Positions 1-62,565 of a DNA stretch of 64,000 nucleotides are shown here, one piece after another. The translations under genes and the position numbers were made by a program. This DNA comes from Candidatus Marinacidobacterales bacterium (GTDB lineage: Bacteria; Acidobacteriota; Vicinamibacteria; Marinacidobacterales; DATDRI01), in NCBI GenBank assembly GCA_965226495.1, contig OZ245365.1:2688001-2752000 (forward strand). The letters are read 5' to 3'. The notes beneath the pieces are model-generated. The model worked only from the letters and a program-made list of their open reading frames with translations. It did no database searches and was not told where the DNA came from. Positions within the stretch are counted from its first letter, which is position 1; every line of letters starts with the position of its first letter.

Positions 1-1721
1 GGGGACATGAGACTCATGTCGACTACGATGTCAGCCTGAATTCTTGCATCAAGCAGATCCGCTCCGTTCTCAACGACACATCGAACGCTTCCCGCTATAT
101 CGAGACTCTCCCGAAGCGAGGCTACCGGTTCATCGCGCCCGTCGAGTCGAGGTTTTCGGAAGCCGCCGTCGGAGGCGCAAGGCCGAGCGGCATCCACCGA
201 TTTCCAACGGCTGCGGGTTCGACCCATGACCTGCCCCGGATCCTCCTTTCCATCGTTCTGATCGGCATCGTTGCCGCGCTGGTCGGCCTCGGTTATCTCG
301 CGCTGGAAGGCTCGCGGTCCCTATGGGACACGACGGGGGCGAACGACAGTCGACTCATGCTGGCCGTCTTGCCCTTCGACAACCTGACGGGCGACCCGGA
401 CAAAGACTACCTAGCGGAAGGTGTCACCCAGGAGATGATCGCTCATCTGAGCATCCTTCGACCATCGCAGTTGGGCGTCATTGCAAGGACCTCGACGATG
501 CGTTACCGAGACACCGACAAAACCGTCGAGCAAATTGGCGGCGAGCTCCACGTCGGATTCGTCCTGAAGGGTAGCGTTCGCGTCGACGAAAGTCGTATTC
601 GTATCAACGGGCAACTCGTTCAGGTCAGCGACCAAAGGACGGTTTGGACCGGCAGCTACGAACGCCAACTCGAAAATACCCTCGCACTCCAACGGGATGT
701 CGCGCAGCGCATCACTCGGGCTCTCTCCGTTGAGCTCCTCTATCCTGGTCAAGTAGCACAAACGGCAACCGGGCTCACGACGAGCGACGCCTACGATGCG
801 TACCTGAAGGGCCGTTATCATTTGAATCGCGGTCACCCGAAAAGCGTCGAGAAAGGAGTGCAGTACTTTCAGGTCGCCATCGACGCGGACCCCTTCTTTG
901 CCTCGGCACAGCTTGGGTTGGCCGAAGCCTATCTCCAGCAAGCGCAAGGCCGCGATGCGCCTGCCGAGGACTTGTACGGGATGGCGAAGGATGCGGCGCG
1001 GAAAGCCGTCGAACTCCAACCGACTTTGGCCGAGGCCCATTTGGTCGACGCGCTGGCGACTTGGTACTTGGATTGGGACTGGGAGCGTGCCGGCGCCGCC
1101 TTCGAGCGGGCCTTAAAATTCAACCCCGGCCTCGCGAAGGCTCACCACTGGTACGCGTATTATTTATCGAGTCTAGGGCAACACGGCCGCGCCACCGCAG
1201 AAGTTCGGCTCGCTCGACAGTTGGATCCACTTTCGCCTCTGGTGAACTCGGACGTGGGTTGGTTTCATTACTTCGCTGGACAATATGAGCCAGCCATCGA
1301 AGAATGCCTTCGCACTCTCGAGCTCGAACCCGGATTCGTTCTCGCTCACACCTGTCTCATGGAAGCCTATGACCGCAACGGAATGCACGAGGAGGCGTTT
1401 GCGGAAGCACAAGAGACCCTTGCGGCCGCCGGCGCCACCGAGGACGAGCTTGCGGACATTCGAAGTCTGGATCCGATCGCACGACAAGAGAGGATCCTCC
1501 GGTGGTGGTTGATCCATGACGATGACCTCGGACCGTACAAACTCGCCCTGGTCCACCTGAGGCTGGGCGAGCAGGGGCAGGCCCTCGACTGGTTGGAGAA
1601 AAGTTTCACCGACAGAGACCTTTGGCTGCCGGTTCTCAGAGAGGATCCGAGGTTCGATTCCCTCCGGTCGGAGCCACGTTTCGAGGCCCTCTCTCACCGC
1701 TTGAACTACCCCAGTATTTAA
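1..1721 (+). CDS. Winged-helix (CadC/OmpR-type) DNA-binding protein with TolB-like and TPR domains; 5' end lies outside the window
   Basis: Frame +3 is open from position 3 and reads SLNSCIKQIRSVLND...YIETLPKRGYRFIAPV (wHTH end), a TM segment, MLAVLPFDNL (TolB-like/adenylate cyclase-associated) and TPR repeats; it is contiguous with ORF 357..1721. Confidence 0.85.
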   Translation, partial: GHETHVDYDVSLNSCIKQIRSVLNDTSNASRYIETLPKRGYRFIAPVESRFSEAAVGGARPSGIHRFPTAAGSTHDLPRILLSIVLIGIVAALVGLGYLALEGSRSLWDTTGANDSRLMLAVLPFDNLTGDPDKDYLAEGVTQEMIAHLSILRPSQLGVIARTSTMRYRDTDKTVEQIGGELHVGFVLKGSVRVDESRIRINGQLVQVSDQRTVWTGSYERQLENTLALQRDVAQRITRALSVELLYPGQVAQTATGLTTSDAYDAYLKGRYHLNRGHPKSVEKGVQYFQVAIDADPFFASAQLGLAEAYLQQAQGRDAPAEDLYGMAKDAARKAVELQPTLAEAHLVDALATWYLDWDWERAGAAFERALKFNPGLAKAHHWYAYYLSSLGQHGRATAEVRLARQLDPLSPLVNSDVGWFHYFAGQYEPAIEECLRTLELEPGFVLAHTCLMEAYDRNGMHEEAFAEAQETLAAAGATEDELADIRSLDPIARQERILRWWLIHDDDLGPYKLALVHLRLGEQGQALDWLEKSFTDRDLWLPVLREDPRFDSLRSEPRFEALSHRLNYPSI

Positions 1722-1808
1722 CCTAGTTTTGCGCGCGAACGCAGCCATGAGCCCATGCGTAGTCGCGCAGCGCCGAAGCACTGAGGCGTGGCGTGGCAGA
1801 TCGTGGTG

Positions 1809-1868
1809 GCCGTCAAAATACGTTGTGCCATCGAACAAGTTGGCCAGACGGCGGTGGGGCCCCGCGCC
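1809..1868. repeat. REP-like GGTGGGGCCCCGCGC element preceded by a 6-bp stem enclosing a 32-bp core
   Basis: gccgtc-[32 bp]-gacggc-ggtggggccccgcgcc; related palindromes occur at 57171-57190 and 57550-57577. Confidence 0.55.
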
Positions 1869-1988
1869 CTTCATCTACTGAGCGCGCATTGAGTCAGGTT
1901 GACCCAACGGAATCCGGCCTGTATCCTGTTTCTTAACATCCTCTTGAAAACTTAAGGACCGTCGGCACATGTGTCGAGGGAGGAAACT

Positions 1989-2588
1989 ATGGGGACGCTC
2001 CGTCTGACAATCCTGCTGAGTTGGGCCGTGCTCGCGAGCGGGTGCATGATCTCGGAGCAGGCTGGACAGATGCCCCAGGATCTGGCCTTTCACTTCGATA
2101 CCGATTTCAATCGAGCTCTCGTATTCGGCCGCCCGATAGCACTTGTTCTACTCGTCATGTGGGTCTTCGCCAACTTCAAGAAGCCGAACTCCATTTTGCT
2201 GAGCGCACCCCTATTGGTTCTAGCGGGATGGACTCTGGCGCAAGACTTTCCATCGCTCGTGGACTACCGAGTCGAAGTACGGGAGGATGCGCTCTATTTG
2301 AAGATCCCTCCCGAACCCGAAAAGGTGATCCCCTGGAACACTGTGGAGGAGATGGAGATAAAAGGTGCCGCATGGGCCGGCGCTGGAGCCAGACCGACGG
2401 TGACTCCAACACCTTTCGGGCCTCGGAACCCGGAGTATGCTTGGTCCGAGCTTCCGGAGTGGCACACGATGGAGATCATGGCCGACGGAGAAACGCATCT
2501 GGTTATTCTCGAGAAGCTCAGCATAGAGCAACGTCAAACGCTCTGGCGGTCGATCGCGAAGCGAGCTCGTTTGGTGAAAGTGGACTAG
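1989..2588 (+). CDS. Hypothetical membrane protein, probable lipoprotein
   Basis: GAGGA RBS, lipobox-like LASGC, two TM segments. Confidence 0.6.
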   Translation: MGTLRLTILLSWAVLASGCMISEQAGQMPQDLAFHFDTDFNRALVFGRPIALVLLVMWVFANFKKPNSILLSAPLLVLAGWTLAQDFPSLVDYRVEVREDALYLKIPPEPEKVIPWNTVEEMEIKGAAWAGAGARPTVTPTPFGPRNPEYAWSELPEWHTMEIMADGETHLVILEKLSIEQRQTLWRSIAKRARLVKVD

Positions 2589-2669
2589 CCTCCGATTCTT
2601 GACTTCCCACCGTCCCTCGGAGTACAAGCAAGAAGATTTCCGATTGCATCGCTCGCGAAGGAGGTTCGA

Positions 2670-3086
2670 ATGGCGTTACGAACGCTGTGCTACTTGGTGG
2701 CCAGTGCGGCTCTACTGTTCTCGCCTCTGAGCTCGTCAGCTTCGTCCGCCACTATCCAACAGGAGCCAGAAAAACCTGAAGAGCCCAAAGGGCCTGAAAA
2801 GCCCAAGGGGCCTGAAGAACCCAAGGGGCCCGATGAGCCGGAGGGATCCGAAGAACCGAAGGGCCCGGACGACCCACGAGGAGAATCCGCGACCGGCGAG
2901 GTTTGCTGTTTTACGAACCCCTACTTCGAAGGCGAATGCCGTGTCTCGCCGGGAGAGGACGAGAGCTGCCAAAGTATTCTCCTGTATCTCAACAGCGCGA
3001 ACACAGAAGGCAAGACCTACTGCGGAACGAGCCTGACTCGCGGAGGCTGGCACAGCGTCTTCTGCAAAGAAGAAGAGCCGGACTAA
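2670..3086 (+). CDS. Secreted protein with PEEPKG-type repeats and a small six-Cys C-terminal domain
   Basis: GGAGG RBS, signal peptide, about six 6-aa repeats, CC-x8-C...C...C...C. Confidence 0.65.
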   Translation: MALRTLCYLVASAALLFSPLSSSASSATIQQEPEKPEEPKGPEKPKGPEEPKGPDEPEGSEEPKGPDDPRGESATGEVCCFTNPYFEGECRVSPGEDESCQSILLYLNSANTEGKTYCGTSLTRGGWHSVFCKEEEPD

Positions 3087-3088
3087 CG

Positions 3089-5611
3089 TTAATGGGCCCC
3101 GATGGGGCTTCCCGGCGGCAGCTCGTGTGGTGCCGTCGGCCCGTCCGTACCCTGCGGGCGATTTTGCCAACGCCGAATGTCCTCGGCCACTAGTTTCTGG
3201 TGAGGGCTCGGCGTCCCCACCGACTCGAGCCAGTCAGAAAGACCTACAAGCTGCTCGGTCAGAATCGCTCGTGCTTGAGAGATGTTCAGACTGTTCGACG
3301 CCTGCCGAAGAAGCTCATCGAGGACCGCGCGCTGCATCGTTTGCTGCACTTCCGCCAAGTAGGCGCTTGCGCCGGTCGGCGCCTTCCATGTTCGCTCCAA
3401 GAGGGACTCTGTCACATCCTCCAGCCCGGGGTACTCGCTACTGCGACTGTGATACTCGACGAGGCGGGCCATGCGCTCGGGGTTGAGAAGTAGCTTCACG
3501 GTGAAGTCGGACGCCGACGCGGCAGCTGCGAGCGGGTCGAACGTGAGTCCCGTCCAGCGTTCGAATTTCTCGCTCTCCGGCTCTCGGAAAGCGCGCGGCG
3601 GAATCATTCTTAATACCCGCTCGGGAACGGCCAAGAACTCCGGATCCAAAGTCGAAAGAACGACGTCGAGAGCATCGCGTTGAGTCTGTCCGGGCACAAT
3701 CGTGATGGTCATCTGCCCGTCTCCCCGCAGAGCGTAGTTGTAATCGGCTCCACCGATGCTGTGCATCGCAGCCTCCAACTGATACCGGTGATGGAGATAG
3801 AGCGGGGCGAGTACTTTCTCCAAAGACGCCATCGGATCGCCGGGGCGGATCGCATCCGGCCCGAACGCCTCGAGACCGAGCCCTCGAACCCGGATTTCGT
3901 GTCGAAGCATTGCGACCGGGTCGGCACCGTTGTCCCACAGGGCGGCGAGAGGATGGGCTGCACCCGGGGGTATGGCATCTCGGCTGCTAATGAATCGGAT
4001 CTTCCGATCCAAACCGTCCTTTACGATCGCATCGAGTGCCGCCTTCTCGTCGGTACCCGGAGCGAAGTCGCTATAAAGCCACTTGATGGCGAACTTGTCG
4101 TATTCTCCGACACCAACTCCATAGGCGTTCGAAAGATCCAGCCTTCCATCCGGCGTGATTTCCACGAGCGGCGCCGGGTAATCCATCACACTGGCACGAC
4201 CCGCATAAGTGCTCGCGATGTAGTTGTGCGCCAGTCCCAATGTGTGTCCTACCTCGTGCGCCGATAGCTGCCGAACTCGAGCCAGGGCCATCTCCACCGG
4301 GTCGTTCTGCGAACCGACTTGCGCGAGATATTCGAAGGTAGGGCCGCCTCCAACACCACAACCGCCGAACCCGGACCCGCTGGTGGGATGCAAACCCTTT
4401 CCGAGCAGGTAGTCCTGTCGCAAGCGGAGACTCCCCAAGTTCACGTTTCCCTTCAGCATCTCTCCGGTCCGCGGATCGGTCACGGAACCGCCGTACGACC
4501 ATCCACGAGTGGATCGATGCGTCCAGTGGATCATGTGGTAGCGCAGATCCATCGGATCGGCGTTCTCTGGAAGTAGCTCCACACGAAACGCATTAACGAA
4601 GCCCGCTTCCTCGAAAGCGGCGCTCCACCAATTCGCCCCATCCAGGAGCGCGCTTCGAATCGGCTCTGGCGCTCCGCGATCAAGGTAATAGACCAAAGGC
4701 TCGACCGCCTCTGATCGTGCCGCGCGGGGATCTTTCTTCTCCAACCGATGCCGAGCCACCCACAAAACGTCGAGATCCTCGTCGATGGGTGTTGCGTAGT
4801 CTTTGAAGGAAATCCCGAATGCCCCCACCCGTGGGTCCGCCGGGCGCGGCTCATAACCTTCGTCCGGTAAACGAACAAGCGAATAGCGAACTCGCAACGT
4901 CACCGCATCCCCGCTCGCCGCGGTCGACTGAACGAGCTCTCCGGGACTGGGACTGGTGAACGTCAGCAGCGTCTCGACCTCAGTGTTCAGTCGAAACGCC
5001 TTGGTTCGAGGCAAGTGAATGACGCTGCGGCTACGATCGAGCTCGAAGTTCCCCTGTCCGGCGTTTTCCAACGTCTTGGCGATGCCGTGCGCATCACGCA
5101 GAAAAAAATCTGTCCCGTCGACCAAGACCCGAGTCCCCGATTCCGCCTCCACTTTGAAGCCCCAATGCGTCGAGGGAGCGAAAGCGTCCCGCACCGCTCT
5201 CACCTCGTCCGGATTATCGCTCCGCGCTCGGTAGCGGTAGTTGGGCTCGACCAGTAGGACCGTCGGGCCGACTCGCCGTGCCTCCAGGATCTGAGTCCGC
5301 CCGAACTGCCCGCGGTCCAGGCCAACCGGATTGCTACCCAACCCGCTGGCCAAAGACACCTGATAGAGAAACTCGGTGTCCCATTGATCGACCTCCCAGA
5401 ATAGCTTTCCGGTGGAACCGTCCCAGTAGAGATCGAAGAACCCCTCTAGGTGAGTCATGTCACGCGTCTTGTCCTCTATGGACGGGATGGACGGAGGCCG
5501 ACTCTCATCCGACGATGTTGCTTGCCCGAATGCTCCTCCCGCGCCAACCGCAAGCAGCGAGCCAAGCATCAACACACACATCACCCCGCACCTCACCCAA
5601 CCGTTCCGCAT
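3089..5611 (-). CDS. Zinc-dependent metalloprotease (DUF5117/DUF4953 met-zincin type)
   Basis: HEVGHTLGLAHN motif followed by SVMDY Met-turn; signal peptide. Confidence 0.9.
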   Translation of the reverse strand: MRNGWVRCGVMCVLMLGSLLAVGAGGAFGQATSSDESRPPSIPSIEDKTRDMTHLEGFFDLYWDGSTGKLFWEVDQWDTEFLYQVSLASGLGSNPVGLDRGQFGRTQILEARRVGPTVLLVEPNYRYRARSDNPDEVRAVRDAFAPSTHWGFKVEAESGTRVLVDGTDFFLRDAHGIAKTLENAGQGNFELDRSRSVIHLPRTKAFRLNTEVETLLTFTSPSPGELVQSTAASGDAVTLRVRYSLVRLPDEGYEPRPADPRVGAFGISFKDYATPIDEDLDVLWVARHRLEKKDPRAARSEAVEPLVYYLDRGAPEPIRSALLDGANWWSAAFEEAGFVNAFRVELLPENADPMDLRYHMIHWTHRSTRGWSYGGSVTDPRTGEMLKGNVNLGSLRLRQDYLLGKGLHPTSGSGFGGCGVGGGPTFEYLAQVGSQNDPVEMALARVRQLSAHEVGHTLGLAHNYIASTYAGRASVMDYPAPLVEITPDGRLDLSNAYGVGVGEYDKFAIKWLYSDFAPGTDEKAALDAIVKDGLDRKIRFISSRDAIPPGAAHPLAALWDNGADPVAMLRHEIRVRGLGLEAFGPDAIRPGDPMASLEKVLAPLYLHHRYQLEAAMHSIGGADYNYALRGDGQMTITIVPGQTQRDALDVVLSTLDPEFLAVPERVLRMIPPRAFREPESEKFERWTGLTFDPLAAAASASDFTVKLLLNPERMARLVEYHSRSSEYPGLEDVTESLLERTWKAPTGASAYLAEVQQTMQRAVLDELLRQASNSLNISQARAILTEQLVGLSDWLESVGTPSPHQKLVAEDIRRWQNRPQGTDGPTAPHELPPGSPIGAH

Positions 5612-5653
5612 CGGCCGAACTCCGTTTTCTTTGGTCGCTAGTATCTTGTATAG

Positions 5654-6589
5654 TTATTGACTCTTCTTCAGGAAACTCAAGATCTCCGAATCGGTGGTCA
5701 AGATGAGCGTCACGTCATTATCGAAGCTGCTACGGTAGGTTTCCAACGTCTTCATAAACTGATAGAAGTCTGGATCCTTGCCATAAGCACGAGCGTAGAT
5801 GCTGGTTGCCTCGGCGTCCGCCAGACCCCGAATCTCCTCGGCTTGCTTAAAGGCCTCGGATTCGATCTCCTTGAGCTCTTTTTCCTTCTGCCCACGGATC
5901 TCCGCCGAACGGCCCTGGCCTTCCGAGCGGCTGCGCTCCGCGATCCGCTGACGCTCGGTGATCATTCGCTCGTAGACCTTCGCCCGCACCTCGTCGACGT
6001 AATTGATGTGTTTGATCTTCACGTCCACCAGCTCGATACCCCACTCTGGCGTAACCAGTGAAGACTTCTCGAGGATCCTCCGCGCGATCCCCGTTCGGCC
6101 GGTGATGATCTCAACGGCTGGCCGGTCGCTGGCAAACTCCTGCAGCTCCTCGGTAACGTCGAAGTCGCGTGCCGTGGACCGCACGATCTCGATGAGATCG
6201 AAGGCCGCCACCGCGTTCCGGGTCTCCCCATCGATGATATCGTCGAGTCGACTTTGCGCGCCCCGCTCGTCGCGAACCCTTTTGAAAAACGCCAACGGGT
6301 CTGCGATGCGCCAACGGGCGTAGGTGTCGACCCAGATGAACTTCTTATCCTTGGTTGTAATCTGATTGGCATCGCCGTCCCATGCCAACCATCGCTTGTC
6401 GAAGCGGTGAACGTCCCAAATGAACGGGATCTTCACCTTGAGGCCGGGCTTAGTGATGGGATCGCCGACGGGGTCCCCGAACTGCGTGATGATGACCTGC
6501 TCCGTCTCGTCCACGGTATAGAAAGTGGCGGGCAACACGAAGAGGAGAAGCGCTCCAATAACTAGGAGAACAATCAGATTCCGATTCAT
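5654..6589 (-). CDS. hflC: FtsH protease modulator HflC
   Basis: SPFH domain, VYERMITER, DPDFYQFMKTLETY; overlaps hflK by 4 bp. Confidence 0.92.
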   Translation of the reverse strand: MNRNLIVLLVIGALLLFVLPATFYTVDETEQVIITQFGDPVGDPITKPGLKVKIPFIWDVHRFDKRWLAWDGDANQITTKDKKFIWVDTYARWRIADPLAFFKRVRDERGAQSRLDDIIDGETRNAVAAFDLIEIVRSTARDFDVTEELQEFASDRPAVEIITGRTGIARRILEKSSLVTPEWGIELVDVKIKHINYVDEVRAKVYERMITERQRIAERSRSEGQGRSAEIRGQKEKELKEIESEAFKQAEEIRGLADAEATSIYARAYGKDPDFYQFMKTLETYRSSFDNDVTLILTTDSEILSFLKKSQ

Positions 6590-29320: not shown

Positions 29321-29396
29321 TGGCGTCCCCAGGGGGAGTCGAACCCCCGTTTTCGCCGTGAAAGGGCGACGTCCTGGGCCACTAGACGATGGGGAC
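29321..29396 (-). tRNA. tRNA-Glu(TTC)
   Basis: GTCCCCATCGTCTAGTGGCCCAGGACGTCGCCCT-TTC-ACGGCGAAAACGGGGGTTCGACTCCCCCTGGGGACGCCA, 76 nt. Confidence 0.97.
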
Positions 29397-29409: not shown

Positions 29410-29485
29410 TGGTGAGCCGTGCCGGGCTCGAACCGGCGACCCTCTGCTTAAAAGGCAGACGCTCTGCCAACTGAGCTAACGGCCC
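29410..29485 (-). tRNA. tRNA-Lys(TTT)
   Basis: GGGCCGTTAGCTCAGTTGGCAGAGCGTCTGCCT-TTT-AAGCAGAGGGTCGCCGGTTCGAGCCCGGCACGGCTCACCA, 76 nt. Confidence 0.97.
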
Positions 29486-61705: not shown

Positions 61706-61820
61706 ACGGGATGAGGAAGGTAACGATGGTCTCTTCGTCCGTTACTCCCTCTCCCTCTGGAGAGTTGGGCGTCAGAATAGGATCTGCTCAATATCAAAGT
61801 GGCCAGACGCCGGGTGAGGG
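61706..61820. repeat. Inverted copy of the 57921 REP unit, interrupted by a 32-bp core in a 6-bp stem
   Basis: ggtaacgatggtctcttcgtccgttactccctctccctctggagag...ccgggtgaggg matches the reverse complement of the 57921-57990 region. Confidence 0.8.
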
Positions 61821-61860
61821 TCGGCGGGCGCCTAAAGCGGAGGTCCTAACGCGCCCGAAG

Positions 61861-62565
61861 TTAGTCAGGGGCGGGGAAAATTTGCAGTAGGTCTTCGAAG
61901 CGTTCGATCACGCGCAGGCGCTCGTCTTCGGCCACCTCTTCGTGCTCTAGCTCCCATGTTAGAGGATGCGGAATCAAGATGGCGTTGAGTCCGGCTTTTA
62001 GCGCAGGGTTCACGTCGGAGGCAGGGCTGTTGCCCACCATCCAGGTCTTTTGCGGTTGGAGCCGGTACCGCTCGACGAGCCCACTGTAAGCGCTTGCGTC
62101 CTTTTCGGGCGTCACCTCCACGTGGTCGAAGTAAGGCGAGATACCACTGCGCTCCACCTTGCGCCATTGCTCGGGGGGGTGCCCTTTGGTGAACATGATG
62201 AGGCGGAATCGATCCCGAAGACTTACGAGTGTCGGCTTGACGCCCGGTAAAAACTCGATGGGAATGTTCGCCACGCGATCGGCCAGAGAGTCGATGACTT
62301 TCATTTCCGAGTCCGTGGCGGGGCCACCGGCCAGCGACTCTAGAGTTTCCCGCAACGACCTCGCGTAGCATTGAGAGCCGTAGCCGTAGAGCGGAACATT
62401 TTTTCTCTCCACCTCGGTAAGGCGCCGTCGCGCCGGGCCTTTGCCGCCTCCTCGAGCTTCGACGAGCTCCAGGAAATGATCCGTCGCGCTTTCGTAGAAG
62501 GTGTTGTTCTCCCAAAGGGTATCGTCGGCATCGATAATGAGCGTTTCCTCTTTGGCGGGCTTCAA
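61861..62565 (-). CDS. HAD-family hydrolase
   Basis: DADDTLWEN, TKG, MVGNSPASD. Confidence 0.9.
   Translation of the reverse strand: MKPAKEETLIIDADDTLWENNTFYESATDHFLELVEARGGGKGPARRRLTEVERKNVPLYGYGSQCYARSLRETLESLAGGPATDSEMKVIDSLADRVANIPIEFLPGVKPTLVSLRDRFRLIMFTKGHPPEQWRKVERSGISPYFDHVEVTPEKDASAYSGLVERYRLQPQKTWMVGNSPASDVNPALKAGLNAILIPHPLTWELEHEEVAEDERLRVIERFEDLLQIFPAPD

Follow-up and report, generated by a model that had tools for sequence, protein, structure and literature searches.

REPs of the GTAG type are imperfect palindromes, 20-40 nt in length, whose loop is short and whose stem is preceded on the 5′ side by a conserved GTAG. REPINs, as Bertels and Rainey reportedly set out in 2011, consist of two REPs in inverted orientation and are linked to a RAYT gene that is present in single copy and flanked by them. 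BOX elements of S. pneumoniae and S. suis are described as having the structure boxA-boxB(n)-boxC (Croucher et al. 2011, PMC3049150), and the same account gives S. suis two BOX families with different end modules and the same boxB inside (PMC3049150). The BIMEs of E. coli are presented as mosaics of REPs (y, z1 and z2) and of the linkers L, S, s, l and r, an IHF site being frequent in L (Ton-Hoang et al. 2012, PMC3333891). CGTC-tagged REPs are reported to consist of an unpaired CGTC head, an 8-9-bp stem from A-T pairs, a 4-5-nt loop and a CCA tail (Di Nocera et al. 2013, PMC3733652). As characterized there, they form head-to-head dimers and have no dedicated transposase (PMC3733652), and REPs nested in other palindromes are also described (PMC3733652).

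Here we report a hairpin module, H, from a genome of Candidatus Marinacidobacterales bacterium. The window from which the analysis started is a stretch of 64,000 nt (contig OZ245365.1, positions 2,688,001 to 2,752,000), in which H stands in two different repeat contexts. Going by the published description, the boxB shared by the two S. suis BOX families is the closest analogue of this observation. We think it fairly likely that H serves as an internal module in lineage-specific mosaic intergenic repeats, where it is shared between repeat types, can be missing and can be repeated in tandem.

Two copies of H in the window

Both copies of H lie on the + strand. Copy 1 occupies window positions 1806-1855 (arms 1809-1814 and 1847-1852, loop 1815-1846); reading of the sequence gave gccgtc, 32 nt and gacggc at 1809-1852, followed directly by GGTGGGGCCCCGCGC. 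Copy 2 occupies 61766-61813 (arms 61768-61773 and 61806-61811, loop 61774-61805); here, 61768-61811 reads as ggcgtc, 32 nt and gacgcc, set between CCCTCTCCC-tct-GGAGAG on the left and GGGTGAGGG on the right. Counted on the two reads, the 32-nt loops are identical at 20 of 32 positions without gaps, exactly as an earlier note on this DNA had described them. The G+C content of the site-1 loop is 14/32, compared with 59.1% for the genome. The pattern CGTCANAATA-N18-24-TGGCCAGACG, which matches twice in the window, matched in 0 of 100 dinucleotide shuffles.

A blastn search of window 1700-1920 against the genome divided site 1, by coverage, into three separately repeated modules, X, H and Z. Module X, the left module (1730-1792, + strand), is an independent repeat of ~61 nt that starts with TGCGCGCGAAC; it returned 29-34 blastn hits, the majority of which end at ~1791 and are distant from H copies. 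Module Z (1853-1893, + strand; 16-31 blastn hits) comprises a GGTGGGGCCCCGC palindrome and a tail ending in GAGCGCGCA. The whole X-H-Z composite spans 1721-1898 (+ strand) between the co-directional ORFs 3..1721 and 1971..2588. DNA contigs from other populations end at module borders of this site (e.g. 1731). Of the 30 bins of window 1-6000, two metatranscriptome contig sets span 9 and 5, respectively, with 1722-1898 outside both. In the DNA run X13, 18 nt are inserted after window position 2801, which is a population-level indel in or near an ORF.

At site 2, H lies within a second type of repeat, the CT repeat. Its left arm, GATGG...CCCTCTCCC-tct-GGAGAG (61725-61767, + strand), recurs in both empty and filled copies, and its right arm is GGGTGAGGG (61812-61820, + strand); both arms were read from the sequence. 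The stretch 3′ of H copy 2, 61821-61880, resembles a degenerate H (CGCC-TAAAG...TTAGTCAGGGGCG). At the matching position, the congener G001 has three tandem variant units, CGCGCACCCAAAAC...CTAGTCAGGGGC, so that array length varies among species.

Copy number and a covarying stem

The genome is a single contig of 6,337,479 bp. The strict pattern used above matched it 10 times, an nhmmer profile made from 77 fuzzy seeds returned 117 copies of H (56 on the + and 61 on the - strand; E<=0.01), and a covariance model made from 22 copies returned 114. Copy 1 of the window scored 70.2 bits, the joint top covariance-model match of the genome (nhmmer E=2.5e-10), and copy 2 scored 57.3 bits. Taken with the shuffles that gave no pattern match, these numbers mean that the likeness of the two sites is not due to chance.

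The consensus, YGGSCGYC-AAAAYAnGnnGKTGCYn(3-4)AtCAAnnTRGCCA-GRCGSCGG, describes a unit of ~50 nt in which a 6-bp stem (G-S-C-G-Y-C / G-R-C-G-S-C) encloses a loop of 32-33 nt. The loop starts with a well-conserved CAAAAYA, has a conserved GC within it and ends in a well-conserved TRGCCAG. The GCCA that precedes the 3′ arm, inside the loop, is near-invariant (C 100, C 112 and A 116 of 117).

The hairpin of H is maintained, as follows from compensatory changes at two stem pairs. At pair 2, 55 copies have C-G, 43 G-C and 6 A-T, with pairing in 107 of 117; at pair 5, 64 have T-A and 40 C-G, with pairing in 108 of 117. CGYC pairs with GRCG in 108-115 of the 117 copies. Over all column pairs, mutual information was highest for pairs 2 and 5 (0.84 and 0.53); the remaining ones reached <=0.44 and mostly involved neighbouring columns. 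In the 22-sequence alignment, 94.1% of cells were paired, compared with 86.0+-1.3 in shuffles (0 of 500 reached the observed value), a control that is inflated because related H copies share descent; sliding the partner left 21-46% of cells paired. Compensatory change of this kind argues for pairing in single-stranded DNA or in RNA. Predicted folding energies of H and its composites were no better than those of shuffled sequences (z +0.9 to -1.2), so it is covariation that makes the case for the hairpin. A candidate inner stem of 4 bp, GCYR/TRGC, found weak support: no more than 69 of 117 copies form its third pair. Rfam gave no family for either H locus at gathering or permissive thresholds (best E=9.2 and E=2.4). 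At gathering score, its only matches in the whole window were two tRNAs; two adjoining tRNA genes lie on the minus strand at 29324-29396 and 29413-29485.

The stem and the loop belong together. When matching H arms were counted by loop length, the only peaks were at 32 and 33 nt (59 and 51, against roughly 10-30), and loops of 0-31 nt gave 4-34 per length without a peak. As arms with short loops are not enriched, stem and loop form one unit, not a passenger within a pre-existing palindrome. The earlier note had seen the 32-nt core as just such a passenger, a view that is also at odds with the 37 of 117 copies that stand alone.

In several respects H resembles the CGTC-tagged REPs as these have been described: it starts with CGYC, has CCA just before the 3′ arm, has no dedicated transposase known and occurs nested in another repeat. 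It differs from that description in that its CGYC is part of the paired stem, its loop measures 32-33 nt and its pairs are direct. The CCA of H lies inside the loop, not after a stem.

Mosaic contexts of H

Classifying the flanks of all 117 copies revealed 37 solo copies, with unclassified DNA on both sides, 22 that lie fully inside the CT repeat CCCTCTCCC...GGGTGAGGG, and 22 that follow another H in the same orientation with spacers of 16-19 nt. Another 14 are followed by the GGGGCCCC module (module Z). By the adjoining motif, 33 of 117 copies are followed by GGTGAGGG, which together with the 14 before GGGGCCCC confirms that the core occurs in two different repeat contexts. X/linker-H(1-3)-Z arrays are also present, and five H copies abut GGTCWGAYCC. 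Other repeat modules with which H is joined number three or more: the CT repeat, X and Z.

The CT repeat is found both with H and without it. CCCTCTCCC occurs 420 times in the genome, and its distance to GGTGAGGG is bimodal, with 100 copies at 14-19 nt (empty) and 24 at 56-60 nt (filled). Recognizable H was found in 21 of the filled repeats, where it stands in place of the 3-4-nt linker between GGGAGAGGG and GGTGAGGG. The left hairpin is degenerate in many filled copies. The ends of the repeat are complementary, CCCTC pairing with GAGGG.

Independently of H, the CT repeat, CCCTCTCCC-n3-GGGAGAGGG-n3-4-GGTGAGGG, consists of a C-rich arm and a canonical four-tract G-quadruplex motif; the window example lies at 61747-61820. 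The formula G3+N1-7 x4 fits 96 of 100 empty repeats. Altogether, CT repeats house 118 of the 389 four-G-tract motifs of the genome, for which a mononucleotide shuffle predicts ~516. In 11 of 21 filled copies, H splits the G-tracts two and two.

Loop sequences sort by context. The nearest neighbour of a copy by loop sequence has the same context in 79 of 117 cases, compared with 52.2+-5.8 when labels are shuffled, a difference that common descent of related copies also inflates. T at pair 5 is present in 32 of 33 CT-embedded copies but in 31 of 70 unclassified ones, and 21 of the 33 CT-embedded copies fall into one cluster at >=75% loop identity. Judged by loop sequence, the CT-embedded copies appear to be a subfamily of their own. 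Clustering of this kind is better explained by composites being amplified than by H inserting time and again.

The same observations bear on the alternative that H alone is a tiny mobile unit which inserts into the linker of REP-type hairpins, filled CT repeats being its insertion products. The coexistence of empty and filled repeats, with H exactly replacing the linker, is what that process would leave behind, as are the H copies that adjoin other repeat types. REPs nested in palindromic targets have, moreover, been reported in other bacteria (PMC3733652). Yet a single subfamily within CT repeats is more readily understood if an existing composite was amplified than if members of the whole H pool had inserted again and again, and a degenerate left hairpin, as many filled copies have it, would not result from clean insertion. 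Empty and filled forms of one host repeat, which the earlier note's idea predicts, are predicted equally well by an optional internal module.

As a probable optional internal module, H has counterparts in the published accounts of BOX elements and BIMEs. In BOX, as described, an internal module of ~45 nt is absent, single or tandem between end modules. The same layout is found here, as a CT repeat with no H (100 copies) or one H (21-24) and as X/linker-H(1-3)-Z. BOX elements are likewise intergenic, hairpin-forming and without a transposase of their own, at least in that description. The likeness would lie in the way of working, with no claim of a relation in sequence, and the two differ in phylum and G+C. 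Unlike BOX, H has solo copies (37/117) and a large conserved loop closed by a short GC stem. BIMEs, from what has been published of them, resemble H composites in making many combinations from few repeat modules and in copy number at a locus that varies among strains or species. In that account, however, the REPs of a BIME alternate in orientation, carry GTAG and have a cognate RAYT (TnpA-REP), whereas H forms direct tandems, has no GTAG and has no matching RAYT.

Comparison with sister species

We compared seven loci of this genome (G000), five of them CT+H, with the congeners G001 and G002. Whole composites have been gained or lost among these sister species. For example, the 178-nt X-H-Z block of window site 1 corresponds to 30 nt in G002, with both flanks aligning at 83-85%. 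At locus 3279332, a 94-nt unit (CT-left+H+CT-right) directly after a stop codon is found in G000 only, with a clean gap in G001 and in G002, and at locus 5835602 ~255 nt containing two CT+H units are absent from G002.

Other copies are shared. Window site 2 has an orthologous CT+H composite in G001, with identical stems and a loop identical at 22 of 32 positions, and other sequence in G002. Locus 5734594 is CT+H in G000 and G001 (4 differences in 44) and unrecognizable in G002; locus 5852691 is CT+H in G000 and G002. The solo H of locus 5733905 is common to G000 and G001, with 6 nt of the 5′ arm deleted in G001, and G002 has a short remnant-like stretch at this position. Locus 3290149 could not be aligned with G001 or G002, and loci 1786132 and 1797691 are rearranged in relatives. 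Beside the older shared CT+H at 5734594, G000 alone of the three genomes has extra empty CT units (5734640-5734780 and 5734520-5734590), a sign that the empty form may have been amplified here recently.

A host repeat filled with H in one species and empty in another was seen at 0 of the 7 loci, a sample small enough for H-only insertion to have gone unseen; the differences were whole composites or decay. At the five CT+H loci (0/5), it was again whole composites that differed. This comparison, together with the separate subfamily of embedded copies, goes against insertion of H alone into REPs, which we regard as unlikely. The earlier note's mobile hairpin module stands insofar as H is recurrent, hairpin-forming and joined to unrelated repeats; it is not supported insofar as H was cast as inserting into REPs by itself. 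The three clean empty sites showed no clear target-site duplication, with at most an ambiguous repeat of <=1-3 nt, and the terminal inverted repeats of X-H-Z are short (7 nt, TGCGCGC/GCGCGCA). For BOX, clear terminal inverted repeats and target-site duplications are described.

Phyletic range and genomic placement

The covariance model of H (R1), with at most 133 candidates scored per genome, had matches in at least 7 of 41 relatives, G000 included: at least 106 in G000, 124 in G001, 124 in G002, 56 in G003 and 78 in G007, plus a single one in each of G006 and G022; G004 and G005, of the same family, gave none. For the unpublished genome G007, the count is used only to state that H is present in the two genomes sampled from genus g2. 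In a class-wide sample with 36 candidates scored per genome, H was present in at least 6 of 151 genomes. Among 185,579 species represented by one genome each, the strict pattern identified 11 loci in three MAGs, two assigned to Candidatus Marinacidobacterales bacterium and one to Vicinamibacteria bacterium. The H+Z junction is common to G001, G002, G003 and G022; in G022, which belongs to another family, it occurs as a single tandem pair. The loop ends of H are conserved across two genera. H was absent from the viral contigs and the plasmid collection searched. Titles and abstracts of the literature on repetitive extragenic palindromic repeats of Acidobacteria held no account of the H family, and a literature search returned no paper naming Marinacidobacterales. 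Like the Rfam searches, this agrees with the earlier note, which knew of no description; H is apparently a real and undescribed repeat module.

H is dispersed, non-coding and intergenic. By ORF calls that are a crude length-based heuristic and not an annotation (5,272 ORFs, 88.9% of the genome), 98 of the 117 copies lie outside ORFs, and the other 19 are mostly at ORF ends or within small doubtful ORFs. The genes flanking the 98 intergenic copies are evenly arranged, with 31 convergent, 22 divergent and 21 and 24 co-directional. These copies showed no orientation bias relative to the upstream gene (52 co-oriented, 46 opposed), and the 117 copies showed no replication-strand bias (53 leading, 64 lagging). 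Such placement is the behaviour of REP-type repeats and unlike that of cis-regulatory leaders.

Even placement relative to genes would also be expected if H served as a binding site for a nucleoid protein that bends DNA, in the manner of the L linker of E. coli BIME-1 with its IHF site, and were kept for chromosome structuring. According to the published description, BIME-1 features a conserved long linker that may bind protein. Conservation of the loop ends across two genera points the same way. In H, the A-tract CAAAAYA is followed after ~10-11 nt by ATCAA, conserved to a moderate degree (A 77, T 64, C 82, A 68 and A 95 of 117), a spacing that resembles that of IHF sites. In comparison with the L linker, however, H contains only the A-tract and the ATCAA half of the IHF consensus, WATCAANNNNTTR; the TTR part lands on the conserved GCC and is therefore unmatched. 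Binding to duplex DNA does not need compensatory changes in the arms, and orthologous copies decay, as seen in the 5′ arm deletion in G001 and the unrecognizable copies in G002. We consider a nucleoid-protein module quite improbable.

In a further reading, H would be the recognition hairpin of a putative lineage-specific processing or mobilizing protein outside the HUH class. The loop ends, CAAAA.../...GCCAG, joined by the stem, would form the binding surface, and H placed in the central loop of a CT repeat would turn a G-quadruplex motif into a hairpin-bearing one, switching the available structure. We regard this proposal as speculative and give it little credence.

Candidate mobilizing enzymes

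The earlier note had offered, as one option, that the core is the fixed footprint of a RAYT/HUH- or IS110-like recombinase, of which H might also be the recognition hairpin. A hairpin maintained by compensatory change is in agreement with such a role, and the genome has two Y1_Tnp (IS200-like) genes. GGTCWGAYCC, the motif abutted by five H copies, flanks one of the two. The flanks of both genes, when read, contained no H. The first gene (1859782-1860618, minus strand) lies between GGGGTCAGATCC/GGATCAGACCCC repeats, which form a REP-like family of their own, and the second between stretches of unique DNA. The first encodes a RAYT-like protein of 279 aa with a C-terminal HTH; its counterpart in G002 is split, with an in-frame TAG. 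The phyletic patterns of the two genes are unlike that of H: genera g1, g3, g4, g6, g8 and g11 gave matches to the first type and the H-bearing g2 gave none, and G001, G003 and G007 gave none to the second. The IS110 DEDD domain PF01548 had 0 matches in the genome, and the single TnpB-like match (PF07282) was a 128-aa frame far from every H copy. The absence of GTAG from H, its 32-nt loop, which is unlike RAYT or IS200 hairpins, and its even distribution over leading and lagging strands add to the evidence against these enzymes. We consider an HUH or IS110-like origin very unlikely.

The long versions carrying a transposase that the earlier note had envisaged did not appear. Only five opposed H pairs lie within 2 kb of each other. 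Three of them, 0.5-1.7 kb apart, enclose no transposase; they contain the ATP synthase b/b′/delta genes, a BMC-domain gene and a 188-aa ORF without a Pfam match. A fourth encloses a gene conserved in G002. The bracketing of the ATP synthase b/b′/delta cluster (5699180-5700730) and of the BMC-domain shell gene (1573380-1573670) is probably a coincidence arising from the intergenic placement of H. H was also considered as an IS-derived MITE, a candidate set aside when the opposed pairs checked contained no full-length element with shared ends and a transposase. No mobilizing enzyme for H was found in the genome.

H and REPINs are alike in being short, intergenic, lineage-restricted hairpin repeats with hundreds of copies. 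H differs from REPs and REPIN-RAYT systems in its 6-bp stem, its 32-33-nt loop, its arms (GSCGYC/GRCGSC) and its lack of GTAG. Unlike the inverted doublets of REPINs, 22 of 117 copies follow another H in direct orientation, and opposed pairs are few. Neither of the two Y1_Tnp genes of this genome is flanked by H or co-distributed with it.

A structured RNA, acting as an mRNA 3′ stabilizer, part of a terminator or a small-RNA family, would account for the covarying stem, for the many copies just 3′ of stop codons (e.g. 3279332 and 5852691) and for convergent gene pairs as the commonest setting (31/98), but is highly improbable in view of the even orientation to upstream genes, the absence of Rfam matches even at permissive thresholds, the lack of G-U strand asymmetry (pair 5: T-G 4 versus C-A 6) and of a T-run after the stem, and the unexceptional folding energy.

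Origin and significance of the H family

The reading that we prefer remains that of an internal module shared among mosaic repeats. The spreading unit would be either a composite (end modules plus H) or solo H. Spread probably took a hairpin-forming single-stranded or recombinational route and was probably catalysed by a host factor, and the number of H units probably shifts by tandem duplication or unequal exchange, in the manner of boxB in BOX elements. Recognition by such a putative host factor would be the simplest explanation for the conserved loop ends. No cellular function is needed to account for the data.

An optional internal hairpin module of a BOX- or BIME-like mosaic repeat is a known kind of element, and H by itself opens no new mechanism; the H family itself is new. 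It provides a well-delimited repeat family for the poorly studied marine Vicinamibacteria (Ca. Marinacidobacterales). The covariance model R1 and the module map can be used to mask these repeats in annotation and to explain contig breaks. Outside Firmicutes and Proteobacteria, H offers a clean natural case in which different end modules share a single internal module. Together with CGTC-tagged REPs and BOX elements, it leads to the question of how small repeats lacking their own transposase are moved.
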